Positions 26,698 through 57,783 of a stretch of 64,000 nt of DNA are shown here, piece after piece. Numbering within the stretch: position 1 is the first letter of the stretch; each line of letters opens with the position of its first letter. The position numbers and the translations under genes are program-made. The notes below the pieces were generated by a model, which ran no database searches, was not told where the DNA came from, and worked only from the letters and a program-made list of their open reading frames with translations. The stretch is from a virus. The DNA lies in the UHGV virus genome UHGV-0312576. One strand, given 5' to 3'.

Positions 26698-27003
26698 ATG
26701 ATTAAGGAGTTTGTGAATTACATTAGTTCAAAAGAAGCATCAGATGATACTATAAAAGATTATCAGTTAGCATTGAATAAAATTGAAAGTGACTGTAATC
26801 AGGATCTAAATAACATTTCGCAGGATACTTTAAAAGAATACATCCACAGAATGAAAAGTGCTGGTCTGACTCTGACAACTGTAAAGCATAGATTTTATAT
26901 ACTATTGGCCTACTATAAATGGGCAGTTGCCAGTAAATATATTGATGTAAATCCTGTTGAAGGAATTATGAGTGAAGTTGATAAGTGGTATGCAATGGCA
27001 TAA
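26698..27003 (+). CDS. stand-alone tyrosine-recombinase core-binding (SAM-like N-terminal) domain protein
   Basis: 101 aa. The pattern 'F..Y......S..T...Y...L.....L..I....L..Y......L...T......L..YYKWA........NP..GI' matches the phage-integrase N-terminal SAM-like domain. No catalytic domain follows. Confidence 0.55.
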   Translation: MIKEFVNYISSKEASDDTIKDYQLALNKIESDCNQDLNNISQDTLKEYIHRMKSAGLTLTTVKHRFYILLAYYKWAVASKYIDVNPVEGIMSEVDKWYAMA

Positions 27004-27039
27004 AATCTAAGTTTCTTCAAATATGATGATTGGAGGATT

Positions 27040-27480
27040 ATGAACGAGAATATATTTAATAAGCCAGAAAAACCATTTTTATTATTGGCAGAAGATAGTG
27101 AACATTCTATCAGCTATCATTGGCTGGAGTCAGAGGAAGAATTACAAGAAGTAGCATTAGAATTAAAAGATGGGGGATGTAGAATTATTGAGGCTATTGA
27201 AATCGGCAGTTGTCGGAATGTAGAAATTAAACCAGACTATCTGGTGGATGATTTTATTGAGGAAATAAACTCAGCTTATGATAAAGCCAATGAATTAAAG
27301 TTTGATAGTGTTATTTTGTCAATAGACACTGATGCAGAAGAAACATATCATATTAATGATACTCCAGATGGATTCCAGTGTGATGAATTTGATTACTATT
27401 TTGACGATTTGGATTCTATTGCAGAGGCTTTGTTCGTTGAAAGAATGGTAGGAAAACCTGTAGAAATAAGGATTGAATAA
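27040..27480 (+). CDS. acidic hypothetical protein (146 aa)
   Basis: ORF track. RBS GGAGGA. Confidence 0.45.
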   Translation: MNENIFNKPEKPFLLLAEDSEHSISYHWLESEEELQEVALELKDGGCRIIEAIEIGSCRNVEIKPDYLVDDFIEEINSAYDKANELKFDSVILSIDTDAEETYHINDTPDGFQCDEFDYYFDDLDSIAEALFVERMVGKPVEIRIE

Positions 27481-27517
27481 CAGGATAAAATTAGATATTC
27501 GTTAGGAGGTAATTGGC

Positions 27518-27832
27518 ATGGGAAAGAAAGGGTATAGCAGACCAGGATTCTTTGGGGGAATTAATCACTATGATGAAAATGGACATAAGGTTGGACATAG
27601 CACCCCTGGACTATTCGGTGGGATGAATCATTATGACGAAAATGGAAATAAGACAGGATATAGTCATAGTGGTTTCCTGGGTGGCACAAATCATTATGAT
27701 TCAGATGGTCATAAGACAGGACATAGTACTCCTGGAGTGTTTGGTGGAGTAAACCATTACGATGAGTACGGTAAAAAGAAAGGTGAGAGCCTGAATGGAT
27801 TTTTCGGAGGCTGGAACCATTATGATAAGTAA
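27518..27832 (+). CDS. tandem-repeat protein: five copies of about 19 aa, 'G(F/L)FGGxNHYDExGxKxGxS'
   Basis: ORF track. The repeats are visible at both DNA and protein level. RBS AGGAGG. Confidence 0.5.
   Translation: MGKKGYSRPGFFGGINHYDENGHKVGHSTPGLFGGMNHYDENGNKTGYSHSGFLGGTNHYDSDGHKTGHSTPGVFGGVNHYDEYGKKKGESLNGFFGGWNHYDK
27540..27830 (+). repeat. five tandem 57-bp coding repeats
   Basis: Repeated ...GG(A/C)AT(T/G)AATCA(C/T)TATGA(T/C)GAAAATGG.CA.AAG... units. Confidence 0.6.
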
Positions 27833-27878
27833 TTGATAGAGGACTGGATTATCAAATCTTCTGTTGTTATAAAAACAT

Positions 27879-27913
27879 ACGTAGGAATCCTTTTTGGATA
27901 CCTACGTTTTTTA
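27879..27913 (+). terminator. rho-independent terminator
   Basis: ATACGTAGG...CCTACGT 7-bp stem followed by TTTTTT. Confidence 0.65.
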
Positions 27914-27944
27914 GTGCAAAAAAATAAAAAAGGAGAATATTATT

Positions 27945-28886
27945 ATGAAATCAATGGAACAAAGTAATTTACAAGCTAAAAAGATGGTGGTAGGTATGTC
28001 TAAAGATAAAATGATTGAAAAAATGAGGAAAATTAATTCCTCTCGTAATGATAATACCGACAGCCGTAAAAACGCATTGAAAATTCTTATGGGAGGTATT
28101 CCTATAGGCGACAAAGTGTTTGTCATTGTTCCGGTGGAAGATTTACATATTGATAAAGCATATCAGCGCCCAGTACAGAGTCATGTTAAAACTCTTGCAC
28201 AGGAGTGGGATGATATGAAGTGTGACCCGCTTAAAATTAATTATAGAAGCGATGGGAATTTATATGTATGGGATGGACAGCACAGACTTGTTGCTTTGAA
28301 AATGATGTGTATTGATTACGTGTTATGTGTTATAACAGTAGGTCTTTCACAATCGGATGAAGCTGCATTATTTGGGTGCCAAGGTGATAGTTTAAAGAAA
28401 CCTGATCCATATGATATTTTTAAAGCTCATGTCTGCGCAGGTGAGGCGATTGATACTGCGATTAAAGATTTGTGTGACAAATGGGGATTAATTGTAAATA
28501 GAAATAACAAAAGGGCTGGAAATTTATCATGTCTTACGCTTACAAGAGAAATTTTTAGGCGGGGACACGGAGAACACCTTGATTGGGTATTAGAATTGTT
28601 ACATGAGGCGAACTGGAATGAATTTACCAAAGCACATTGCCATAGAATAATTAATGCTTTGTATGAAATTAAAAAATCAGATGATGACGATAATAAATTT
28701 ATACAAAGAAAACTAATAACATATCTTAGAAAAACGAACCCAGATGATTTGCTTGTAAATGCAACAATACAATATCCACAATTTCAAGATGAGAGTAAAA
28801 AAATAAAATTATTTTTGCTAGATGTGGTAAATAGAATAACATCTAAAAATGGTATTTTCGAAAATCAAGATAGATTTATTGCATAA
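27945..28886 (+). CDS. DGQHR-motif ParB/Srx-like (DndB-like) protein
   Basis: 313 aa with 'VEDLHIDKAYQRPV' and 'YVWDGQHRLVAL' motifs of the ParB-like/DGQHR family. Confidence 0.55.
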   Translation: MKSMEQSNLQAKKMVVGMSKDKMIEKMRKINSSRNDNTDSRKNALKILMGGIPIGDKVFVIVPVEDLHIDKAYQRPVQSHVKTLAQEWDDMKCDPLKINYRSDGNLYVWDGQHRLVALKMMCIDYVLCVITVGLSQSDEAALFGCQGDSLKKPDPYDIFKAHVCAGEAIDTAIKDLCDKWGLIVNRNNKRAGNLSCLTLTREIFRRGHGEHLDWVLELLHEANWNEFTKAHCHRIINALYEIKKSDDDDNKFIQRKLITYLRKTNPDDLLVNATIQYPQFQDESKKIKLFLLDVVNRITSKNGIFENQDRFIA

Positions 28887-28954
28887 GTACATATTGCTTG
28901 GTCGGTAGTGGTCAAACGCTGCCGGCTGATTTCTTAATAGATGGAGGTAGGATT

Positions 28955-29773
28955 ATGGCACAGGCGGCATTAGAAGATAATCACAAAGCAGAAATTATTA
29001 AACTCCCTGTTGAATATCAAGAGGACGTTGCACAGACGGCTCCAGAGACCCATAAAACAAAAAGAAGGACTACCATGGAGTGTCTTTACAACGAGAACGA
29101 AATAAGAGCTGTTTATAGTGTTTTTATGCGTCGAATTGAAGAAGCGGATACATTTGCCAAGGAAAGGGCTGCTAGACGCAACTTGACCATGTTTGCTTGT
29201 GCAATTGAGATCGGTTTACGTGGTGGAGATTTTTGTTCTCTAAAGTGGAGTGACATTGTTAATTCTGACTGGACATTTAATTTGGGAGCAGAATTCGTTC
29301 CACAGAAAACAAGCAAATTTGGAAAGCATATTGACCTAACTTGGGGATTGGGGTTTGAACAGGCGATGAGTGCGTGGCTGGCTTGGAAGAATACCTACAT
29401 CAGACAACAGAATATGGATGACTATATTTTTACAGCTCAAAAACCGCACAAGGATAGGAGGACTGGTGAGATGAGGATGCATATTGACCCTAAAGCTTGG
29501 TATAAAATTGTTGAAGCAGCAAGAAAAGAAGCTGGGATTAAACAGAAAATTGGAACTCATGGACTTAGAAAAACAATGGCTAATCAGTATATCAAACTCT
29601 CAGAGGATAAGTCTGAGGCGCTTCTTGATGTGTCGGAACAGTTTGGACATTCTGATGTCCGGATAACACGTAAGTATGCCTGTATCCAGCGAGAGAAAAT
29701 TAGACAGACAAAGCAAAGAATGGTCTGTTTAACAGAAGGATTGTATGATAAAATGGAGGAAGGTCATAAGTGA
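28955..29773 (+). CDS. tyrosine recombinase catalytic-domain protein lacking an N-terminal core-binding domain
   Basis: Catalytic R..HxxR..H..Y set: 'LRGGDFCSLKW', 'HGLRKT', 'GHSDVRITRKYA'. GGAGG RBS at the ATG at 28955, an internal Met of ORF-track entry 28898-29773. Confidence 0.65.
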   Translation: MAQAALEDNHKAEIIKLPVEYQEDVAQTAPETHKTKRRTTMECLYNENEIRAVYSVFMRRIEEADTFAKERAARRNLTMFACAIEIGLRGGDFCSLKWSDIVNSDWTFNLGAEFVPQKTSKFGKHIDLTWGLGFEQAMSAWLAWKNTYIRQQNMDDYIFTAQKPHKDRRTGEMRMHIDPKAWYKIVEAARKEAGIKQKIGTHGLRKTMANQYIKLSEDKSEALLDVSEQFGHSDVRITRKYACIQREKIRQTKQRMVCLTEGLYDKMEEGHK

Positions 29774-29802
29774 CTATAAGATTCGAGAGGAAAAATTAAA
29801 TT

Positions 29803-29970
29803 ATGGAGAAATATATGAATAAGCCAGTTGAGTATAACTGGACCGAAGAAGATATAATTTCAGAATATAAGGCACTTGAAGATAAGAAGAAGGTAGCGAA
29901 AATATACTGCATAACGACAAAACAGGTTAATGAGATTCTGAAATCAAGAGGGATGTGTGATTTACAGTGA
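29803..29970 (+). CDS. small hypothetical protein (55 aa)
   Basis: GAGAGG RBS. ATG at 29803, TGA at 29968. The overlapping minus-strand ORF 29796-30179 is judged spurious. Confidence 0.4.
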   Translation: MEKYMNKPVEYNWTEEDIISEYKALEDKKKVAKIYCITTKQVNEILKSRGMCDLQ

Positions 29971-31788: not shown

Positions 31789-31818
31789 AAAGGACTGAAA
31801 TTCGTCAGTCCTTTTTTG
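31789..31818. terminator. bidirectional terminator (AGGACTGA/TCAGTCCT, 8 bp)
   Basis: Perfect hairpin flanked by an A-run and a T-run. It overlaps the stop codon of the minus-strand XRE gene. Confidence 0.75.
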
Positions 31819-32056
31819 TACGATGGAAGGTTGGATCATTAGTACGACCTACTAAATAGTCAATTGAAACTTGAAAATAGTCAGCAATTTTAATTACCAT
31901 ATCAAGACTAGGCTTTCGCTGTTCATTTTCAAAATTGCTAATAGTACCACGTGTTGTACTGAGATCTTTACTTAATTGTTCCATTGTGAGATTCTTACTT
32001 ACACGTAACTCGTTAAGTCTTTTTGCAAATGATGGTGGATAAAAGAAAAAAAACAT
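31805..32056 (-). CDS. XRE-family HTH repressor (switch module 2), 83 aa from the RBS-supported start
   Basis: 'LTMEQLSKDLSTTRGTISNFE' HTH. AGAGG RBS before the ATG at 32056. The ORF-track N-terminal extension is not supported. Confidence 0.65.
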   Translation of the reverse strand: MFFFFYPPSFAKRLNELRVSKNLTMEQLSKDLSTTRGTISNFENEQRKPSLDMVIKIADYFQVSIDYLVGRTNDPTFHRTKKD

Positions 32057-32065
32057 AAAACACCT

Positions 32066-32094
32066 CTTGACTTTCGCTTGCAAATGGCATACAA
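32066..32094 (+). promoter_or_regulatory. sigma70-type promoter TTGACT-17-TACAAT
   Basis: Consensus spacing. It faces the antirepressor gene and is followed by a 300-nt leader. Confidence 0.5.
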
Positions 32095-32394
32095 TGGTTT
32101 TGTATTCTAATAGCAAGCGAGTTTGGCTTAAGAATAGCGGCTCTGCTCCGACCAAAGAATAGAAGCCACTATTCAACATACTTGGATTAAATCCAGTCAA
32201 GTACATTTTATCTTACTTTCTGGACTATTTCAAGTCATTTTTCCAAATTCCCGTACTTTGACAATTTGAATAGATTGACCACCTAAGATGGTTGATGTAA
32301 TCGACTTGTAAAATTCTTAATAGTGTGCGATCAAAAATGGAGAATAAATCTATAGAACACTATTAACATAGTCTATGGAAAGGAAGATTATAGT

Positions 32395-33324
32395 ATGAGG
32401 AGAACAAAGGAACAGGAAAAGATTGATAATATTATCTCTGATAGAAATATAAGGGATAAATGTGTAAGTCACTATGAGGTATTGGAAAGAGTAAAAGAAT
32501 TATTCCTTTTACCAGATACAGATTTAATGTCAATCAATCAGGTGGCAGAATATTATGAAGTAAGCCCTCAGTGGATTAAGGACCTGTATACACAAAATAA
32601 GAATGAGATTGACTCCGATGGTACAAAAATGATTAAAAGAAATCATTATGATGGAAGTCTTTTAAAAACTACTTCCGTTGAAAAGAAGCAAACTTCCGTT
32701 ACATACATATTTGATAATGGACAGATTGTAACTATCAATAATAGAGGATTAAAAGCGTTTAGTAGGCGAGCTGTTTTGAGAATTGGAATGTTGTTACAAC
32801 AGTCTGATGTGGCGAGAAGAGTAAGAGACGCATTGCTAGACATTGAAGAAAAAGCTTCGCCAGAAGTTAAAATCAAAGATATTGAAGAAGAGCAGAATCT
32901 TATGATGGAGGTTGGCCGGGCTGTAGCAAGTGGAGATGCTAATGCTGTTGCCATTGCTTCAACCAATCTTATTGCTTTTAAGAATCGTCATATTGAAAAG
33001 CTGGAAAATGACAATAAAAGACTTGCTGGTGAGATATTAGAATGGTCCGATAGGAACAGACTTAATGCTGGAGTAAGAAAACTTGCTTCTGTGACCGGAA
33101 TTCATTTTAGTAAGATTTGGAATGAGTTATATAAGAATCTTCAGTACAAATATAGAATTTATCTAAAGCAGCGTGGCGGAACACCTTATATACAATGGAT
33201 TGATGAAGATGAGTGGAAGAATGTACTAAAAGTATTTTGCGCAATGTGTGAAGCATATAAGCAATCTCCCACAGAGATGTTCCAACAAACAACGCCAAAA
33301 GAAAATTTACATAATGCAAGTTAG
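32395..33324 (+). CDS. phage antirepressor (ORF6N-like N-terminus, KilA-C/ORF6C-like C-terminus)
   Basis: 'MSINQVAEYYEVSPQWIKDLYTQNKNEIDSDG' is ORF6N-like. 309 aa. Confidence 0.5.
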   Translation: MRRTKEQEKIDNIISDRNIRDKCVSHYEVLERVKELFLLPDTDLMSINQVAEYYEVSPQWIKDLYTQNKNEIDSDGTKMIKRNHYDGSLLKTTSVEKKQTSVTYIFDNGQIVTINNRGLKAFSRRAVLRIGMLLQQSDVARRVRDALLDIEEKASPEVKIKDIEEEQNLMMEVGRAVASGDANAVAIASTNLIAFKNRHIEKLENDNKRLAGEILEWSDRNRLNAGVRKLASVTGIHFSKIWNELYKNLQYKYRIYLKQRGGTPYIQWIDEDEWKNVLKVFCAMCEAYKQSPTEMFQQTTPKENLHNAS

Positions 33325-34550: not shown

Positions 34551-34847
34551 AGCATAAAGAGAACAGAACAAACGTTCTTTTTGAGGTTGACACGAACATA
34601 TGTTTGGATTATAATAGCCATATAGCAAAAATATCTTCGAGTTAGCGAAGATACAAATAAAAAGACCCGTCCTCAAACGGTGTTGGTGCACCTCGGACGA
34701 GTCTCTTATATAATTTTTTCTAAAATGGCAGAAGCCACGCTTTATTATTACATAGTAGTATTTGTATTGTCAAGTATTTTGTTTTATATCTAAGCGATTC
34801 TGCTATTGTTCCGCGACCCAAAATTAAATAGAGAATATATCTTGATA

Positions 34848-34920
34848 GGGCTATAGCCAAGAGGTTAAGGCATCGCACTTTGACTGCGAGACTCGTGCGT
34901 TCAAATCGCACTAGCCCCAT
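34848..34920 (+). tRNA. tRNA-Gln (anticodon TTG), slightly irregular acceptor stem
   Basis: Cloverleaf drawn by hand: D arm GCC...GGC, anticodon stem TCGCA/TGCGA with loop CTTTGAC, T arm GTGCG-TTCAAAT-CGCAC. One mismatch at the acceptor end. Confidence 0.55.
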
Positions 34921-35645: not shown

Positions 35646-36320
35646 ATGGACTTAACGAAGCAACAACAGTTATTTGCTGGTTTGACGCCACAACAACAAG
35701 ATACAATTAATTTTTATCATGATAACAATATGGCGATGCTTAGAAAGATTTGTGACCCTATAATTTATCGCAAAGGTGTATCACTCATGGACTATGATGA
35801 ACTGTATGATGTCGCGTCTGATACATTGCTGGAAAGTCTCGGAACCTATGATGAATCAAAGGGGAGTCAGTTTAGTACATATTTGAAAGGCAATATCAAC
35901 CGTGCCTTCTATGATTGGACAAGAGATAATCGTAGATTTAAGCGCTGTAATTTAACAGAGGAAAGAGATGAAAACGGAAACCTTGCAAAAGACAAGAATG
36001 GAAAGCAAAAATATGTAGTTATTGCAGACATTTCTATTGATGCTCCGATTGGAGATGATAGTGAGTCAACGCTTGCTGATATGCTTCCATCAGGTTTTGA
36101 TTTAGAAGCAGAGTTGGCTGAAGAAATTGGTATTTCGTCTGGAAGTAAGATGGAAAAATACCTTGAAAAGCTGTCCAAAAAGCAGAGGCAAGTTGTTGGT
36201 TATTTATCTGAAGGATATAAACCATCAGAGATAAAAGAATTGCTACATATTTCAGAGAAAGAATATTCGGATTGCATGATGGCAATCCGAGCTTATAAAA
36301 ACATAAAAATATTGTTATAG
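35646..36320 (+). CDS. sigma-70 family RNA polymerase sigma factor (phage-encoded, ECF-like two-domain)
   Basis: Region 2-like 'FSTYLKGNINRAFYDWTRD'. Region 4 HTH 'LSEGYKPSEIKELLHISEKEYSDCMMAIRAYKN'. Confidence 0.65.
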   Translation: MDLTKQQQLFAGLTPQQQDTINFYHDNNMAMLRKICDPIIYRKGVSLMDYDELYDVASDTLLESLGTYDESKGSQFSTYLKGNINRAFYDWTRDNRRFKRCNLTEERDENGNLAKDKNGKQKYVVIADISIDAPIGDDSESTLADMLPSGFDLEAELAEEIGISSGSKMEKYLEKLSKKQRQVVGYLSEGYKPSEIKELLHISEKEYSDCMMAIRAYKNIKILL

Positions 36321-36340: not shown

Positions 36341-37750
36341 ATGGTAGAACCTATTAGGGAGCACACTTATTCACTTTCTGCGTATTTAGACGCTACCAAG
36401 GAGGAAGATATTCGGGAAGACCAGGATGTCCAACGGCTATCGGGACAGTGGGATACAAGTATGATTAATGAGTTGGTCTATACGGTTCTTACCAGGGACT
36501 ACATTCTTCCAATTATTATCGGAGAAGAGGATTTGGAAGGTGGGATGACTCAGTTATGGCTGGTAGATGGTGTACAGAGGACATCTAGTTTCATTTTATT
36601 CCGCTTTGGAAATCACAAAATCACCTCTTCAATATCGGAAGCTCACAAGACTGTAGACTATCAGGTAAGAGCTATAGATGAAGATGGGGAATTTATTAAG
36701 GATGAAGATGGGAATTTTGTATATGAAACTAGAACATGTAATTTAGTAGGAAAAACTTTTGATACACTTCCAAAGGAGCTTCAGAAGGAATTTGATAGAT
36801 TTCAGATAAAGACAGTCATTCATCAGCATTGCACAATGGAGAAGATATCAGAATTAGTGCGTCGCTATAATAACCATAAGGCAATGAATGCTGCGCAAAC
36901 AGCATTTACATATGTTGACAAATTTGCGAGACGGATTAGAAATATTACAGAGCATAAATTTTTTACAGAGTGTGATGGATTTTCTGAAAAGGAAAAGAGA
37001 AGTGGTGTATATGAACGTGTTGTATGCGAAACAACTATGACTATGTTTCATTTAGATGATTGGCAGAAGCAAAGTAAAAAGATGGGAATGTATTTAAATG
37101 AACATGCCACTGACAATGAGTTTGATATAGTGAATAGGACTTTGGATAAAGCATTTGATATGGGGCTTGCGTCATATGATCAGATTTTTACTGCAAAAGA
37201 TGCGTTTATCTGGTTTGCATTATTTCAAAAATTCAACAATATTGAACCTAGTAGCGATAAATTCACAACATTTCTCGATGCCTTCGTAAATGAGTTACAC
37301 AGTAAAGTAGTAGATGGTGTATCATTTGATGAAATTAATACCAACAGAGCCACTAAGGATAAGGCGGTAATCAAAAGAAAACTGGTATTACTTGAAAAGT
37401 TGATGAGGGATTTCTTACATATTGAAGAAGTAGCATCAGAACAGTTTATAGCTGAAAATGTTGGACTGAACATCGAATCAGTTAGAAATGATATGGACTT
37501 TTATAACCAGATGCTTGACGACCTGGAGGATAGAACAATTAAAGATGGCTCAAAACTTTTGAATCCGGATAACAGATTATCATTGCTGACGCTTGTGGCT
37601 TATACAATTGAAAATGATATTGATTTAGATGATTGGATGTTAGAGTATGCAAAGAATAATGATACATATTTTATGGATCAGAAAAAGAATTATTTACATA
37701 TGAGACAGGAACTGGAGAAGTTTCTAAATAAGAAGGTGGTAGCTGCATGA
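36341..37750 (+). CDS. DUF262 (ParB-like, DGxQR) domain protein, 469 aa
   Basis: N-terminal 'QDVQRL...WLVDGVQRTSS' matches DUF262. The long C-terminus has no HNH/DUF1524 motif. Confidence 0.55.
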   Translation: MVEPIREHTYSLSAYLDATKEEDIREDQDVQRLSGQWDTSMINELVYTVLTRDYILPIIIGEEDLEGGMTQLWLVDGVQRTSSFILFRFGNHKITSSISEAHKTVDYQVRAIDEDGEFIKDEDGNFVYETRTCNLVGKTFDTLPKELQKEFDRFQIKTVIHQHCTMEKISELVRRYNNHKAMNAAQTAFTYVDKFARRIRNITEHKFFTECDGFSEKEKRSGVYERVVCETTMTMFHLDDWQKQSKKMGMYLNEHATDNEFDIVNRTLDKAFDMGLASYDQIFTAKDAFIWFALFQKFNNIEPSSDKFTTFLDAFVNELHSKVVDGVSFDEINTNRATKDKAVIKRKLVLLEKLMRDFLHIEEVASEQFIAENVGLNIESVRNDMDFYNQMLDDLEDRTIKDGSKLLNPDNRLSLLTLVAYTIENDIDLDDWMLEYAKNNDTYFMDQKKNYLHMRQELEKFLNKKVVAA

Positions 37751-40250: not shown

Positions 40251-41444
40251 TTATTTATAAAGCTCCATCACTCTTGCATAGTAAATTCTCAAAAACTTAT
40301 TAACACCAGCCATTTTGGCTACAGTCTTGTGCTTACCTTCAGATTCTTTCTTGATGATGAACTGGTAAACAGGGTCATTCTCGGGCTTATGTACCTTGAG
40401 TGAGTGCATGACCTCATAGCAGGCTTTACGCAAGTAGGCTGAGCCACGTTTTGATATATGCCGATTGGTCCCTTCGAATTGCCCAGACTGATAAGGAGGT
40501 GCATCATTACCGGCGTAAGCATTAAGTGCTTTAGCACTGGTAAACCTCCGTACATCTCCAATCTCGGCAATCAGGATAGGGGCCAGGCGGTCTCCAACGC
40601 CATACATGGAACGGACAATGGAATACTCTGGCATTGTATAAGCGATAGACTGCATTTGTCGCAGTATCAAATCGGCTGAGGAGCTGGCTTGCTTTAACAT
40701 TAACAGGCACTGAGATAACGCAAGAGAAGTGGTAACATCGGGGCTGCGGGTGATAATGCCATCAGAGGCGGCTTGATAAATCGCAAGAGCTTTCTTTTGA
40801 GAACCCCTACATCGGTGTTTTTGGGCAAAAGCGATGTAACTATTTACAAACCGTTTTTCACCCATCTGAGAGATTTTTTCATAGCTCTGGTATTTTTCTA
40901 CGAAGTCGAAGAAAAGCGTGTTTTCCAGGTATCTGGATGAGATAGGAATGATATTTTGAATACCAGGCATGATATCATCTAACAGATTGGAGAGTTGGAC
41001 TCTGGCTTTGACTTTCATAGAAACGCTTTGACTGTATTGTCTGGACAGAAATTTTAGGTCCTCATACTTTTGGTCGGTAGGGCTGTAAGGCCTTAACTGA
41101 TATGACTTTTCTAACACAAAATGTGCAATGCGGACAGCATCCTTTTTATCAGTCTTTCCTTTTCTGATACTGTTGTCCATAAACTTTTTAACCAGGAATG
41201 GATTAATCACGAATACGGTGAATCCTGCTTCAAGCAGAGCTTTAAGAATGGGATAGTGGTAATGTCCAGTTGATTCCAAAGCGACTTTAGTCTCTTCTTG
41301 GTATGAATGAATTAAGGCTGTGAGTTGAGTAATATCGCTGATAGTATGTGAAAAGTCATGTGGCTTTGACAGAACAGTCCCATCAGAGCGAATAATTGCG
41401 ACAGTGCTTTTGGATTTAGATACATCAATACCTACAGCTAACAT
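40251..41444 (-). CDS. IS110-family transposase (distinct from IS #1)
   Basis: 'MLAVGIDVSKSKS...ALESTGHYHYPI' DEDD N-terminus. 397 aa. Confidence 0.85.
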   Translation of the reverse strand: MLAVGIDVSKSKSTVAIIRSDGTVLSKPHDFSHTISDITQLTALIHSYQEETKVALESTGHYHYPILKALLEAGFTVFVINPFLVKKFMDNSIRKGKTDKKDAVRIAHFVLEKSYQLRPYSPTDQKYEDLKFLSRQYSQSVSMKVKARVQLSNLLDDIMPGIQNIIPISSRYLENTLFFDFVEKYQSYEKISQMGEKRFVNSYIAFAQKHRCRGSQKKALAIYQAASDGIITRSPDVTTSLALSQCLLMLKQASSSADLILRQMQSIAYTMPEYSIVRSMYGVGDRLAPILIAEIGDVRRFTSAKALNAYAGNDAPPYQSGQFEGTNRHISKRGSAYLRKACYEVMHSLKVHKPENDPVYQFIIKKESEGKHKTVAKMAGVNKFLRIYYARVMELYK

Positions 41445-43859: not shown

Positions 43860-45029
43860 ATGGCAGAAAGAGCATTAGCACATATTGAAAAGGTGGAATG
43901 GGTAAATCCAATCGAAGGAGCTGATAATATCGAACTTATTGGTATATTAGGTTGGGTTTGTGTTGCAAAAAAGGAGGAGTTTAGGCCGGGAGATATTGCT
44001 GTTTACATTGAGATTGATAGTAAATGTCCGGAAAATGATGAGCGATTTGCTTTTTTGGCAGCTAAACACTATAAAGTGAAAACTATGAAGTTAGGAAAAT
44101 TCAAAGTAATCAGTCAGGGGCTTGCATTACCAATTACTTTATTCCCGGAGTTTGCTGGTAAGAAAATTGGCGATGATGTAACCAATGAACTGAAAATTAC
44201 ATACTCTTCTCAGGAAGATATTAAGAGAAAATCAAATGGAGTTGATCCGGAAGCCAAGTATAAAGCAATGGCTAACAGGAAGCCTAATTTGTTTAAGAAG
44301 CCATTAGTACGGAAGATAATGAGGTACAAATTTGGACGTAAGTTAATGTTTTTGCTTTTTGGCAGAAAGAAAGATAATCCGAAGAAATTTCCTGATTGGA
44401 TTGTGAAGACTGATGAAACAAGAATTGAGAATGCTCCGTTTTATTTAAATAGTACAGATAAATGGGTTAAAACAGAGAAGTGTGATGGGACTAGCTGTAC
44501 GTATGCTGTTGACAGATTAAAAAAAGGGAAAAATAAATTTGATTTTATTGTGTGTAGTAGAAATGTACGGCAAGCAGATAGAAACCAAGAAACTTATCAC
44601 GACTCAAATATTTATTGGGAACTGGCAGATAAATATGGGATTGAAAAGATTCTTACTGATTTTGCAACAGAGAATAATTATAGCAGAGTGGTATTACAGG
44701 GAGAGGGAGTTGGTTCTGTTCAAGGAAATCCATATAAATTGAAGGAGAATGTACTATATGTATTTAATCTCATTATTGATGGAGTGAGGGCTGGAACTGT
44801 GGAAATGTCTAACTTTTGCAAGGCACATAATTTAACAAGTGTTCCAATTATTGATACTGAATGTGTATTGCCGAAGACTATGGAAGAAATGAAGCTTGAG
44901 GCTGATGGATATAGTGAGTTAAATCCAAAGGTAAAGAGAGAAGGATTTGTATATAGGAGTGTTGATGGACAACAGAGTTTTAAAAATGTTTCAAGAGAGT
45001 ATTTGTTAAAACATAATGGTAAGGAGTAA
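43860..45029 (+). CDS. ATP-dependent polynucleotide (RNA) ligase, nucleotidyltransferase superfamily
   Basis: Motif I 'TEKCDGTS' (KxDG). Motif IV-like 'VVLQGEGVG'. 389 aa. Immediately followed by a kinase-phosphatase gene. Confidence 0.55.
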   Translation: MAERALAHIEKVEWVNPIEGADNIELIGILGWVCVAKKEEFRPGDIAVYIEIDSKCPENDERFAFLAAKHYKVKTMKLGKFKVISQGLALPITLFPEFAGKKIGDDVTNELKITYSSQEDIKRKSNGVDPEAKYKAMANRKPNLFKKPLVRKIMRYKFGRKLMFLLFGRKKDNPKKFPDWIVKTDETRIENAPFYLNSTDKWVKTEKCDGTSCTYAVDRLKKGKNKFDFIVCSRNVRQADRNQETYHDSNIYWELADKYGIEKILTDFATENNYSRVVLQGEGVGSVQGNPYKLKENVLYVFNLIIDGVRAGTVEMSNFCKAHNLTSVPIIDTECVLPKTMEEMKLEADGYSELNPKVKREGFVYRSVDGQQSFKNVSREYLLKHNGKE

Positions 45030-45034
45030 ACGAG

Positions 45035-46099
45035 ATGTCAATACCAATTTTTACAATGATGGTAGGTTTACCTGGTAGTGGTAAATCTACCTACGCAGAA
45101 AAACTATCAAAAGAACGCAGCGCAATAATTTGTAGTTCTGATAAAGTTAGAGAAGATTTGTATGGAGACGAAAACTCGCAAAGCAACAATGATGAGGTTT
45201 TTAAATTATTACATAAAAGAATTAAAGAACTTCTTAAAGCAGGCGAAAGTGTTATTTATGATGCGACGAATATCAATTCCAAAAGACGTAGAGCATTTTT
45301 ATCTGAATTGAGAAGTATTCCATGTAAAAAGATTTGCGTGATAATGGCAACTTCATTGAAGAAGTGTTGTAGACAGAATAATTCTAGGAGCAGGACAGTT
45401 CCATATGAAGTTATTGAGAGAATGTATAAGAACTGGAATACCCCGTATTGGTTTGAAGGATGGGATGAGATTAAAGTTGCTTCGGAATATAAATTACCAA
45501 ACCTAATTTTTTGTTGGTTGACGGATTATATGGATTTTAATCAACAAAATCCAAATCATACTTTAACACTTGGGAAACACTCTATTGAAGTAGGGGATTA
45601 CTTTCCAGAAAATAGTTTATTGCGAGATGCTGGATACCTTCATGACTGTGGAAAGCCGTTTACAAAATCTTTTAATAACTCAAAGGGAGAAGAAACAAAT
45701 GTGGCGCATTATTATCAACATCATTGTGTAGGAGCTTATGATAGTTTGTTTTATGACTATTCAGAAGGCGTTGATAGATTAGACGGCTCTATTCTAATTA
45801 ATTTGCACATGATGCCTTATTTTTGGGAGAAAGACAAAGAGTACGGGGAGAAGACAAGGTTGAAATATAAGAAGCTATGGGGTGAGGAACTATATAACAA
45901 TGTGATGAAACTGCATGAGGCTGTGGAGTGGTGCCAACAGCATGGTTTGGAATTTGATGCTATTAACGAGAATCTACCGGAGACACTAGAGTGGCTTGGC
46001 GGAACTGAAAGTAGGAAAATTCACGCAGATGTCTTTATTGATGACAAGGCTGTTAATAAGCCAAAATATTGTGTGCCATATAAGGAGTGTACCATGTAA
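45035..46099 (+). CDS. polynucleotide kinase-phosphatase (P-loop kinase + HD phosphohydrolase)
   Basis: N-terminal Walker A 'GLPGSGKST'. C-terminal HD motif 'H...YLHDCGK'. Confidence 0.65.
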   Translation: MSIPIFTMMVGLPGSGKSTYAEKLSKERSAIICSSDKVREDLYGDENSQSNNDEVFKLLHKRIKELLKAGESVIYDATNINSKRRRAFLSELRSIPCKKICVIMATSLKKCCRQNNSRSRTVPYEVIERMYKNWNTPYWFEGWDEIKVASEYKLPNLIFCWLTDYMDFNQQNPNHTLTLGKHSIEVGDYFPENSLLRDAGYLHDCGKPFTKSFNNSKGEETNVAHYYQHHCVGAYDSLFYDYSEGVDRLDGSILINLHMMPYFWEKDKEYGEKTRLKYKKLWGEELYNNVMKLHEAVEWCQQHGLEFDAINENLPETLEWLGGTESRKIHADVFIDDKAVNKPKYCVPYKECTM

Positions 46100-49633: not shown

Positions 49634-50635
49634 TTGGTAGAAAGCAAATATACAGCAACAGACTTAAAGATTATGCAGTCCTGGCTCCTGGAAAGAAAAA
49701 TTCAGGTGAGTCAAACCAGGATATTAGAAACATATAACAGATATAATAACATGTGTTACGTCTCCTTTAGCGGAGGCAAGGATAGTAGCGTATTGGCTGA
49801 TTTAACAGCCAGAGTATGTAAAGTACTAAACTGTAAATTAGTTCTATGGTTCTCAGATACAGGTCTTGAATTTCCAGAAGTAAAAAAACATGTCAAAGAG
49901 TTTCCAACCTATTTAAGAAACAGATATGGTATTGAAGTTGAACTGATAGTAGATTATCCGAGAGATAAATCTGGTAAGCGTATATCATTTAGAGATGTGG
50001 TGTTGACTGAAGGATATCCGGTTATCTCTAAAACTGTCAGCCGCCAGGTTCGCGATGTAAAGAAGCTTGGTAAAAATTGCTGGGCTTACGGATGTTTCAA
50101 TGGCAGAGAGAAAGGTATCTATAATATGCTGCAATGGAAGTATCTTATTGATGCTCCATTCAAGGTATCCAATAAGTGCTGCCAAATCATGAAGAAGAAT
50201 CCAGCTAAGAGGTTCAATAAGAGTAGTGGAAGAATACCTATTATTGGGACCATGGCCTGTGAGAGTAAGCAGCGAAAAACAGAGCGGCTACATAATGGCT
50301 GTAATGCTTTCGATAAAGGGGAACCTAGCAGCCAACCGATTAGCTTTTGGACAGAAAATGATGTTCTGGAATATCTATACCGTTTTGATGTACCATATCC
50401 ATCAGTTTATGGAGAAATATGTATTGATGAGGATGGCAAATATTATTGTACAGGATATAGTAGAACGGGATGTGTATTTTGCGCTTTTGGGTGTCATCTG
50501 GAAAAGGATATTAATCGATTCCAGAGATTATTAAAGACTCATCCGAGGCTTTGGCTTTATTGTATGAAACCTGTAATGTATGGTGGTCTGGGAATGGCTA
50601 AGGTGCTTAGGTATATAGGCGTAAAGTATTTTTGA
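49634..50635 (+). CDS. PAPS-reductase-family PP-loop protein (DndC-like) with a C-terminal Cys cluster
   Basis: PP-loop 'VSFSGGKDSS'. C-terminal 'CTGYSRTGCVFCAFGC'. 333 aa. Confidence 0.6.
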   Translation: MVESKYTATDLKIMQSWLLERKIQVSQTRILETYNRYNNMCYVSFSGGKDSSVLADLTARVCKVLNCKLVLWFSDTGLEFPEVKKHVKEFPTYLRNRYGIEVELIVDYPRDKSGKRISFRDVVLTEGYPVISKTVSRQVRDVKKLGKNCWAYGCFNGREKGIYNMLQWKYLIDAPFKVSNKCCQIMKKNPAKRFNKSSGRIPIIGTMACESKQRKTERLHNGCNAFDKGEPSSQPISFWTENDVLEYLYRFDVPYPSVYGEICIDEDGKYYCTGYSRTGCVFCAFGCHLEKDINRFQRLLKTHPRLWLYCMKPVMYGGLGMAKVLRYIGVKYF

Positions 50636-54683: not shown

Positions 54684-55463
54684 ATGGCAATTATAGGAGC
54701 AATTTTAGGTGACATAGCTGGTTCCAGATGGGAGTTTCGTAGACCGAAAGGTTTAGACTGGGAACACATTGATTTATTTACAGATGATTGTTTCCTCACG
54801 GACGATACGGTTTTGACCGTAGCAACAAAATATGCTTTGCAGAATAATGTTTCATTCAAAGAAGCGTACCACAAGTTTGGAAATAAATATCCAAATTGCA
54901 GTTACGGCTGTGGCTTCGAGTCCTGGTTGGGGTCTAAGTGGAGCAAGCCGTACAATAGTTTTGGTAATGGTGCTGCTATGAGAGTATCACCTGTTGTAGA
55001 CTTATGTGAGTCACGATTAGAGGTAAGTTACGTTTCTAAAGAAAGTGCATTATGTACTCATAATCATCCAGAGGGAATTAAAGGAGCCAAGGTTACGGCA
55101 ACGTGTGCCTGGATGGCAAAGAGAGGCGCATCGAAGAAAGAAATTGAAGAATATGCCTGTAGAAAATATCCGTCTGATGAGTATATGTTTCCGGTGTCGA
55201 TGTCTTTAAAAGAATTAAGAGAAAAATATAGATGGAACGAAACTTGCCAAGGAAGTGTGCCAGTAGCAATCAGATGTTTTCTGGATAGTGAGGATTATGA
55301 GAGCTTCATCAGAAATGTGTTGAGTCTGCCATGTGATACCGATACATTGTGTGCTATTGGTGGAGGTATTGCTGAAGAATTTTATCATGGGACAGGCTTT
55401 AATGCGGACAAGTTGATGAGAGAATACTTGGATGAATATTTATATGAAATTGTGAAAGCGTAA
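54684..55463 (+). CDS. ADP-ribosylglycohydrolase family protein (DraG/ARH-like)
   Basis: 'GAILGDIAGS', 'FTDDT', 'GNGAAMRVSP' and 'GGDTDT'-type 'CDTDTLCAIGGG' motifs. Confidence 0.65.
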   Translation: MAIIGAILGDIAGSRWEFRRPKGLDWEHIDLFTDDCFLTDDTVLTVATKYALQNNVSFKEAYHKFGNKYPNCSYGCGFESWLGSKWSKPYNSFGNGAAMRVSPVVDLCESRLEVSYVSKESALCTHNHPEGIKGAKVTATCAWMAKRGASKKEIEEYACRKYPSDEYMFPVSMSLKELREKYRWNETCQGSVPVAIRCFLDSEDYESFIRNVLSLPCDTDTLCAIGGGIAEEFYHGTGFNADKLMREYLDEYLYEIVKA

Positions 55464-57563: not shown

Positions 57564-57637
57564 TGGGCATTCGCCAAGCGGTTAAGGCACAGGACTTTGA
57601 CTCCTGCATTACGTTGGTTCGAATCCAACATGCCCAG
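57564..57637 (+). tRNA. tRNA-Gln (anticodon TTG)
   Basis: Acceptor TGGGCAT/ATGCCCA. D arm GCC..GGC. Anticodon stem CAGGA/TCCTG with loop CTTTGAC. T arm GTTGG-TTCGAAT-CCAAC. Confidence 0.75.
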
Positions 57638-57640
57638 TTC

Positions 57641-57709
57641 TCACCATAGTTAGTCCCATTAGCTAACACAGCTAAACCGCCAGGGACGGCGGTGGCTATG
57701 GTGATACCA
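57641..57709 (+). other. tRNA-sized, non-canonical hairpin element sitting between two tRNAs
   Basis: 8-bp terminal stem TCACCATAG/CTATGGTGA encloses two hairpins (AGCT-aacac-AGCT and CCGCC-agggacg-GGCGG). No standard D, anticodon or T arms. The 3' end is ...ACCA. Confidence 0.3.
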
Positions 57710-57783
57710 GGATCATTAGCTCAGTTGGTCAGAGCATCCGGCTCATAACCGGACGGTCATCTGTTCGAGTCAGATATGATCCA
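57710..57783 (+). tRNA. tRNA-Met (anticodon CAT; could equally be Ile2/lysidine type)
   Basis: Acceptor GGATCAT/ATGATCC. D arm GCTC..GAGC. Anticodon stem TCCGG/CCGGA with loop CTCATAA. T arm ATCTG-TTCGAGT-CAGAT. Confidence 0.8.

Follow-up and report, generated by a model that had tools for sequence, protein, structure and literature searches.

A free-standing core-binding gene linked to a catalytic-only tyrosine recombinase in a large temperate phage of human-gut Lachnospiraceae

A core-binding (CB) plus a catalytic (CAT) domain is treated as the general architecture of tyrosine recombinases in a large survey of these enzymes (PMC8138268). Here, we describe a locus in which a CB and a CAT domain are encoded by two separate genes with three further genes between them, at positions 26698 to 29773 of a 64,000-nucleotide stretch of the virus genome UHGV-0312576 (hereafter the window). 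The phage to which the window belongs is large, temperate and uncultivated, with human-gut Lachnospiraceae as hosts, an assignment that follows from relatives of the catalytic gene, which lie on viral contigs and also in Lachnospiraceae genomes, in one chromosome with phage DNA on both sides. A megablast search of 24-33 kb of the window against cultured phage and plasmid collections returned zero nucleotide matches, and an independent contig from the human gut, OFOU01000634.1 (L080), has the identical five-gene order at 99.3% identity. The original prediction, made from the sequence alone, described the locus as a tyrosine recombinase split in two around a three-gene cassette; its five open reading frames (ORFs) are all confirmed in position.

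Genes and features of the locus

The first gene (26698-27003, plus strand) encodes a stand-alone core-binding (SAM-like) domain protein of 101 amino acids (aa), hereafter CB-only, and the expectation that it contains this domain and nothing else held. Its Pfam matches are three recombinase core-binding models above their curated cut-offs and no others, namely Phage_int_SAM_1 (PF02899; E 1.3e-8, 35.5 bits, cut-off 22.3), SAM_5 (PF13102; 30.7 bits, cut-off 22.3) and MrpR_N_CB (PF22822; 30.0 bits, cut-off 27). The AlphaFold2 (AF2) model is a helical bundle of five helices with a predicted local distance difference test (pLDDT) score of 93, which superposes on the CB domain of Brujita Int (5vfz) with a template modelling (TM) score of 0.81 at 1.5 Å and further matches phi3T SroF, YopR/MrpR, Tn1549 Int, XerA and lambda Int. 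Nine full-length homologues were found, 101-102 aa long and 68-99% identical, and three more matches are fragments. The ratio of non-synonymous to synonymous substitution rates (dN/dS) is 0.17-0.39 in nine of ten pairs, the tenth pair being almost identical, and judged by these substitution patterns CB-only is a functional gene kept by purifying selection. The tail past the 'NP' motif, the equivalent of an interdomain linker, has N85, V87, E88, G89, I90, D95, W97 and Y98 invariant and forms an extra helix in the model, and the conserved residues K20, Y22, T58, K63, R65 and K74 suggest that the protein binds DNA.

The CB-only family is small. Against 1.84 billion representative proteins, its profile recovers its own members and then generic integrases at E 1e-7 or weaker, and a pattern scan of IMG/VR finds the CB gene on 3 contigs only. 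The representative search also gave three stand-alone CB-like proteins (P0132, P0153 and P0140), which were set aside as comparable loci, their contexts being uninformative or different (P0140 sits on a low-coverage contig), and a 1455-aa match in the CB search (P0128) is a low-complexity repeat artefact. P0132 itself is a divergent 114-aa CB-like protein whose gene lies about 870 bp ahead of one for an MrpR-like protein of 304 aa, and not ahead of a catalytic gene like that of the window, on a related phage-like contig (L097:4001-6129). The 304-aa protein has weak matches to MrpR_N_CB and MrpR_C_cat and a PemK gene lies between the two, making this another instance of a stand-alone CB gene near a recombinase-fold gene.

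The last of the five genes (28955-29773, plus strand) encodes a tyrosine recombinase of 272 aa, hereafter Cat, which bears the full catalytic signature without a CB domain, just as had been read from the sequence. PF00589 is its only Pfam domain (E 7.7e-17, 62 bits, cut-off 27.1), with no SAM-like Pfam match in the protein, and phrog_216 integrase matches at 5e-29. The residues R89, K118, H202, R205, H232 and Y241 are invariant in an alignment with 33 homologues reaching down to 38% identity. In the AF2 model pLDDT exceeds 90 over residues 41-250 and the first helix starts at residue 47; structure prediction thus leaves no room for a CB domain, because residues 1-40 are disordered. This tail contains a short conserved motif. 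Foldseek matches the model to IntI4 (top), XerA, XerH and Cre, all with probability 1.00. Neither Cat nor CB-only reaches the cut-off of any Xer or IntI family, the TIGR02249 integron-integrase model scoring 45.9 on Cat against a cut-off of 265. A TTG at 28898 lies within a hairpin and 5' of the GGAGG ribosome-binding site, and the ATG at 28955 is therefore the likely start.

The homologues of Cat form 115 clusters, of which 109 cover at least 78% of the query; these 109 are 225-317 aa long and carry PF00589 only. In most lineages the gene has its own upstream hairpin and ribosome-binding site. Taken together, these comparisons indicate that Cat is most likely a complete, self-contained and separately expressed tyrosine recombinase and a core gene of the phage family.

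Three genes, all on the plus strand, lie between CB-only and Cat, and the intergenic spacers of the locus measure 36-112 bp. The first (27040-27480; cluster c12) encodes the 146-aa protein already noted as acidic, with an isoelectric point (pI) of 4.06 and 39 D+E against 11 K+R; it has no significant family match in Pfam, profile models, PHROG or PADLOC. The second (27518-27832; cluster c77) encodes a Gly/His-rich protein with five tandem repeats, starting at residues 10, 31, 52, 73 and 94 and following the unit G-[FLV]-[FL]-G-G-x-N-H-Y-D-x-x-G-x-K. The number and composition of the repeats are as first described, and their period is not 19 aa but 21 aa, encoded by 63-nt direct repeats; no family match was found for this protein either. 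A terminator-like hairpin with a T-run, read in the sequence, follows at 27872-27910 on the plus strand, the spacer RNA folding at -26.9 kcal/mol.

The third gene (27945-28886; cluster c7) encodes a 313-aa ParB-fold DUF6551 protein that matches PF20188 (2e-13, 50.9 bits, cut-off 26.8) and the ParB-like phrog_1033 (2.5e-15). The DGQHR motif (residues 110-114) and the ParB relationship of the original description both stand; the DndB part does not, the protein falling below the cut-offs of TIGR03187 DGQHR (21.3 against 58.85) and TIGR04172 DndB (13 against 450). Phage DUF6551 proteins are reported to bind CTP or ATP (bioRxiv 10.1101/2025.10.10.680097). PADLOC returned nothing for the five proteins of the locus.

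Between the DUF6551 stop and the ribosome-binding site of Cat, a terminator scan identified a plus-strand hairpin followed by TTTCTT (28898-28929; fold -21.7 kcal/mol), which is consistent with the terminator proposed for the end of the cassette. It is kept with wobble and compensatory changes in L010, L011, L012 and L017. Hairpins upstream of Cat were considered as lox/dif-like core sites and rejected; they look like terminators, because their G.U wobble pairing holds on the plus strand only, a compensatory change distinguishes the window from L010, and U-tracts are present.

Directly downstream of Cat, at 29803-29970 on the plus strand, is a 55-aa ORF (cluster c1) conserved in position: an ORF of this cluster (50-55 aa) is present at 36 loci, and at most of these it is the gene that directly follows Cat. 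Neither Pfam nor PADLOC gave a match for it, and its placement suggests a small partner of Cat, for example a directionality factor or regulator.

Distribution, linkage and mosaicism

Relatives of Cat were found at 66 IMG/VR viral loci, mostly on contigs of 90-205 kb, and in genomes of the Lachnospiraceae Lacrimispora, Eubacterium segne and Blautia. Inside the complete Lacrimispora sp. HJ-01 chromosome the gene has phage DNA on either side (L087 versus L021). The junctions of this prophage were checked to decide between integrase and resolvase, and an att site could not be defined there. The same chromosome also holds a second, frameshifted Cat remnant (L090:9932-10674; L005:2893-7646); the DNA 3' of the remnant matches L. 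celerecrescens at 97-99% identity and stops close to tRNA-Val/tRNA-Ala, and this part of the chromosome may represent either the end of a decayed prophage or a region of integration.

The Cat gene itself varies in ways worth recording. P0052 is a chimera, its first 24 residues identical to the window protein and the remainder of a divergent L002 type (49% identity), which implies recombination within the Cat gene family. On the 153-kb contig L001 (L001:8473-9126), Cat is internally deleted to 217 aa, having lost box II through the catalytic Tyr; an intact copy of this type exists as P0093. In three relatives a full-length tyrosine integrase of 304-370 aa is encoded 3-6 kb upstream of Cat (L007:1443-2357, L010:1460-2548 and L101:2122-3234). 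The window has no such gene, and its matching segment (about 23.9-24.8 kb) is shorter. Phages with the extra integrase may use this different enzyme for integration, which hints at a role of Cat in resolution, inversion or regulation rather than integration.

CB-only is far more restricted than Cat. Three viral Cat loci out of the 66, all of one lineage, have it within the 10 kb that precede Cat, and it is absent from at least 54 Cat loci with at least 4 kb of upstream sequence. The closest relative of the window, L014 (a 156-kb contig with a 97% identical Cat), shares the repeat gene, the DUF6551 gene and Cat (27485-29969) at 96% identity and has a Fic gene in place of CB-only and the acidic gene. 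L010 and L017, with Cat proteins 80% and 70% identical, also lack the CB gene. In a search for divergent CB genes in CB-less lineages, representatives of the most frequent genes directly upstream (clusters c6, c23, c93 and c76) gave no SAM-like Pfam match, and c20 was assessed by eye from its sequence. Cat is thus mostly found without a CB gene and would therefore not need one.

CB-only, for its part, always occurs with Cat, in eight distinct arrangements. The first is that of the window and L080 (CB, acidic, repeat, DUF6551, Cat), and the second, in the L011 group, reads CB, acidic, c27, ParB-fold c7, NsnA-like DUF262, Cat. Nothing separates the two genes in L101/L102 (TIR, CB, Cat), in L001 (acidic, CB, truncated Cat) and in L002 (CB, Cat). 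One gene lies between them in L003 (TIR, CB, 196-aa gene, Cat) and in L106 (CB, 140-aa gene, Cat), and L103 has CB, Fic, HTH(-), HTH(+), an antirepressor-like gene and Cat, where HTH stands for helix-turn-helix.

The intervening genes themselves are not bound to CB-only. The acidic gene adjoins CB-only in 3 of the 8 arrangements (the L011 copy encoding a protein 57% identical to that of the window) and also occurs downstream of Cat in loci without CB-only. The repeat gene is present in L014, with a near-identical protein, and in L010, at 81% nucleotide identity, both without CB-only. Homologues of the c7 ParB-fold gene lie one to three genes upstream of Cat in 18 loci with Cat identities of 36-97%, the window protein and its L011 counterpart being 26% identical (E 2e-18). 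Breakpoints between the window and its relatives coincide with gene boundaries, and the alignments to L010, L011 and L017 all begin at 28904, within the hairpin upstream of Cat. Exchange in this island involves genes of the TIR, Fic, GmrSD_N/NsnA-like, PemK and HEPN families, a content typical of accessory or defence islands in phages. On these comparisons, the three genes between CB-only and Cat are swappable cargo of a hypervariable island.

A recurrent unit among the neighbours of Cat is a ParB-superfamily gene pair at positions -2 and -1 (L011:11186-13189, L010, L017, L028/29, L066-69 and L077/78), consisting of a DUF6551 homologue and then a DUF262/GmrSD_N protein of about 350 aa that matches PADLOC NsnA (4e-24). 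The window and L014 hold only the first member. Together the two genes may act in defence or maintenance, as a module tied to the recombinase.

The cargo-free relatives L002, L101/L102 and L001 bear directly on whether one gene was split. They still have two ORFs, 139-166 bp apart and, in L002, where this was checked, in different frames. Between them lies a strong hairpin that pairs through G.U wobbles and runs into a U-tract; a ribosome-binding site follows. By its sequence features, this spacer has the layout of an intrinsic terminator and is no interrupted reading frame. At the boundaries of the cargo in the window the only repeats were short ones at chance level and the coding 63-nt repeat, with no direct-repeat, att- or attC-like flanks; the integron and cassette-insertion models were dropped because att-like repeats are absent from these boundaries.

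Weighing the explanations

We give a probability of roughly 55% to the reading that Cat is an autonomous, CB-less recombinase and CB-only an optional, selected accessory, with exchangeable cargo between them, and that the locus is not one broken gene. The reading builds on directly observed domain content, family distributions, mosaic structure, selection on the CB gene and separate gene structure; all biochemical activities, and any interaction between CB-only and Cat, we infer. Cat would recombine phage DNA site-specifically on its own, whether to resolve multimers, to integrate or to invert; the catalytic-only integrases of 180-215 aa from Firmicute plasmids and phages are assumed to do likewise. 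CB-only would be an accessory that a minority of related phages carry, always upstream of Cat, and would act as a DNA-binding helper or regulator of the Cat reaction that is dispensable for catalysis, either adding or modulating site recognition in trans or controlling expression. Relatives would swap the cargo between the two genes by recombination at gene boundaries.

Several observations weigh against this. CB-only is net acidic (pI 5.6), which is atypical of a strong DNA binder. A recombination site for Cat was looked for and none was identified, and neither family has a member with demonstrated function. In all eight arrangements CB-only precedes Cat on the same strand, separated from it by 0-5 genes, and this constant position despite shuffling could reflect a tighter heteromeric coupling than that of an optional accessory. 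Furthermore, phages whose Cat proteins share only 40-43% identity have CB-only proteins that are about 80% identical; the CB/Cat pairing is therefore mosaic, and as a pattern in the sequences the mismatch fits a promiscuous helper or no interaction alike.

A possible but clearly less probable explanation, also raised by the original prediction, is a two-piece recombinase in which CB-only docks non-covalently on Cat and DNA, rebuilds the C-shaped clamp and is needed at the site of that particular phage. The two domains are complementary, CB-only covering positions 2-95 and Cat positions 114-285 of a XerC model, and the linkage and orientation of CB-only hold throughout the 8 arrangements although all other neighbours are shuffled, but at least 54 Cat loci do without CB-only, including the phage with the 97% identical Cat. 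The conserved motif in the N-terminal tail of Cat could be a docking peptide, yet it is just as conserved in CB-less genomes. Purifying selection on CB-only and its linker-like tail, conserved and modelled as an extra helix, would both suit such an assembly. The pairing of one CB-only type with the divergent Cat types mentioned above speaks against it, as do the terminator between the two genes and the intact CB gene of L001 next to a Cat without the box II-Tyr region. As to the ParB-like partner proposed along with the two-piece enzyme, ParB-fold genes are indeed frequent neighbours of Cat. It is an equally tentative thought that CB-only, assembling with Cat in trans, would perhaps re-target it to a different site, with the space between the two genes serving as a preferred landing pad for accessory and defence genes.

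More doubtful is a lysogeny module resembling the SPbeta sro operon, in which CB-only would be a regulator derived from a recombinase CB domain and unrelated to Cat catalysis, the acidic protein a Sar-type antagonist, and the ParB-fold gene and Cat the counterparts of YopQ and YopP. SPbeta has yopO (HTH), yopP (integrase), yopQ (ParB_N) and yopR (MrpR) beside a divergent HTH gene (PMC8612738; PMC10516654). MrpR and SroF are integrase-fold master repressors of SPbeta-like phages, and SroF is inactivated by Sar, a small, negatively charged DNA-mimic antirepressor (bioRxiv 10.1101/2025.11.27.690993). CB-only exceeds the MrpR_N_CB cut-off and its model matches the SroF, YopR and MrpR structures, but profile (hhalign) and BLASTP comparisons with SPBc2 YopP, YopQ and YopR were not significant. 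Most DNA contacts of SroF depend on its CAT domain (bioRxiv 10.1101/2025.11.27.690993), a domain that CB-only lacks; Cat retains all catalytic residues, and MrpR has lost them (PMC10516654). The acidic gene adjoins CB-only in the three arrangements noted above, but it occurs without CB-only too. An HTH gene lies 2 kb downstream of Cat in the window (31805-32206, minus strand) and the HTH(-)/HTH(+) pair of L103 sits between CB-only and Cat, but the window has no AimR-sized ORF upstream.

That CB-only is an inert remnant of the second full-length integrase seen a few kb upstream in relatives is very improbable. The integrases of L007, L010 and L101 do lie 3-6 kb upstream of Cat, and those of L010 and L101 match the CB-only profile weakly (E 4e-5 and 3e-6), but L101 carries the full-length integrase and CB-only together, the identity between upstream integrase and CB-only is only 36% over 50 residues, and CB-only is constant in length with dN/dS well below 1. 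Least credible of all is a recent insertion of a three-gene cassette into a once-intact integrase, leaving two fragments, as the original prediction had offered among its options: the order on one strand of N-terminal domain, cargo and C-terminal domain, and the tiling of a Xer profile by CB-only and Cat without overlap, accord with it, but the cargo-free relatives keep two ORFs, cargo differs across the eight arrangements and is missing from three, both genes belong to conserved families of fixed length (Cat CB-less throughout and with every catalytic residue, CB-only under selection without decay), no fused CB-Cat homologue exists among the 1.84 billion representative proteins, and the full-length integrases nearest CB-only have catalytic domains only generically similar to Cat, no close one aligning to both halves as contiguous fragments of one ancestral gene.

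Firmicute phages and plasmids commonly encode catalytic-only tyrosine recombinases, which have to recognise DNA without a CB clamp. A selected, free-standing CB protein that is always linked to a CB-less enzyme offers a testable handle on this recognition. If CB-only and Cat cooperate, they would form a modular recombinase with an exchangeable specificity subunit, which would be relevant to recombinase engineering and to the way phages re-target integration or resolution. If CB-only and Cat do not cooperate, CB-only would be a second case, after MrpR/SroF, of recombinase parts serving as DNA-binding regulators in large temperate phages. For annotation, the lesson is that an integrase N-fragment, cargo and an integrase C-fragment are not automatically a disrupted gene.

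Phage context and known systems

The window consists mostly of small, co-oriented plus-strand ORFs with phage-type functions. The HTH gene at 31805-32206 is of the XRE/CI type and is divergent from an antirepressor-like 309-aa gene on the plus strand (32395-33324), the pair resembling a lysis-lysogeny switch; in L103, homologous HTH and antirepressor-like genes are placed between the CB gene and Cat. Near the left end, Ku (PF02735) and an ATP-dependent DNA ligase are encoded side by side as a pair like that of non-homologous end joining (NHEJ) at 7878-9601, adjoined by minus-strand genes for a RelA/SpoT-domain protein (6435-7643) and an antirepressor-like protein with a P22 AR N-terminal domain (5412-6308). 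Two transposase genes, both counted as IS110, lie on the minus strand within this otherwise plus-strand region: that at 2310-3596 has IS110-family Pfam domains and coincides with a local GC rise (0.47 at 2-3 kb), and that at 40251-41444 has a PHROG 'transposase' family as its only match (2e-68). Three tRNA genes (Gln, Gln, Met) lie in the regions 34846-34920 and 57564-57783, followed after the first by a sigma factor (35646-36320) and a second GmrSD_N-like protein (36341-37750). Further genes include an RNA-repair-like module of an RNA ligase and a polynucleotide kinase/phosphatase-like protein (within the region 43860-46099), a gene like that of phosphoadenosine phosphosulfate (PAPS) reductase (49634-50635) and an ADP-ribosylglycohydrolase (54684-55463).

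Among known systems, Xer and other simple recombinases (XerA, XerH, XerC/D, IntI) are the best structural and profile matches of both pieces and have the same catalytic residues as Cat; the two genes are thus nearest to the same kind of enzyme and do not point to different integrase families. In these recombinases, however, CB and CAT are joined in one polypeptide, whereas the window has two genes. The gene of SSV1-type archaeal integrases is partitioned on integration, since attP lies inside int; its parts come to lie at opposite ends of the element and are rejoined on excision. The likeness is a tyrosine recombinase gene in N-terminal and C-terminal parts; the difference is that the window has the order N-part, cargo, C-part and that the empty state is still two genes. 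Integrons share with the locus a variable array of small genes beside a tyrosine recombinase, and IntI4 is the top fold match of Cat, but no attC-like repeats lie between the window genes and the cargo is upstream of and co-oriented with the recombinase.

The sro operon of SPbeta and phi3T is likewise found in large temperate Firmicute phages and likewise combines CB-like, acidic, ParB-fold, integrase-domain and divergent HTH genes. There is no significant sequence similarity, however, MrpR has both domains and CB-only lacks the CAT domain, and no arbitrium genes were seen in the window. The resemblance is one of analogy, not of membership.

The closest known counterparts of Cat are the catalytic-only integrases of Firmicutes, which like Cat have PF00589 only and no CB domain, and which give its best matches among annotated plasmids and cultured phages. 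Examples are the 195-aa INT_C_like_3 'integrase' of Lactobacillus pRC12/pRC18 and L. plantarum plasmids (PMC7117683), the 'XerD' of phiSemix9P1 (214 aa) and the recombinase of Bacillus phage 11143 (180 aa), and such genes also occur on Lactiplantibacillus, Enterococcus and Bacillus plasmids. They often lie by PemK or RelE toxin-antitoxin genes (PMC7117683), as does Cat in many related phages. Identity to them is only 26-33%, however, and Cat is longer (272 aa), with its disordered N-terminal tail and conserved motif; in the regions inspected these relatives have no stand-alone CB gene nearby. The original prediction knew of no such arrangement, and in the literature searched we found no description of a natural tyrosine recombinase with CB and CAT as separate polypeptides. 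The catalytic-only architecture is thus already known, if little studied, and what is new at this locus is the linked, free-standing CB gene.

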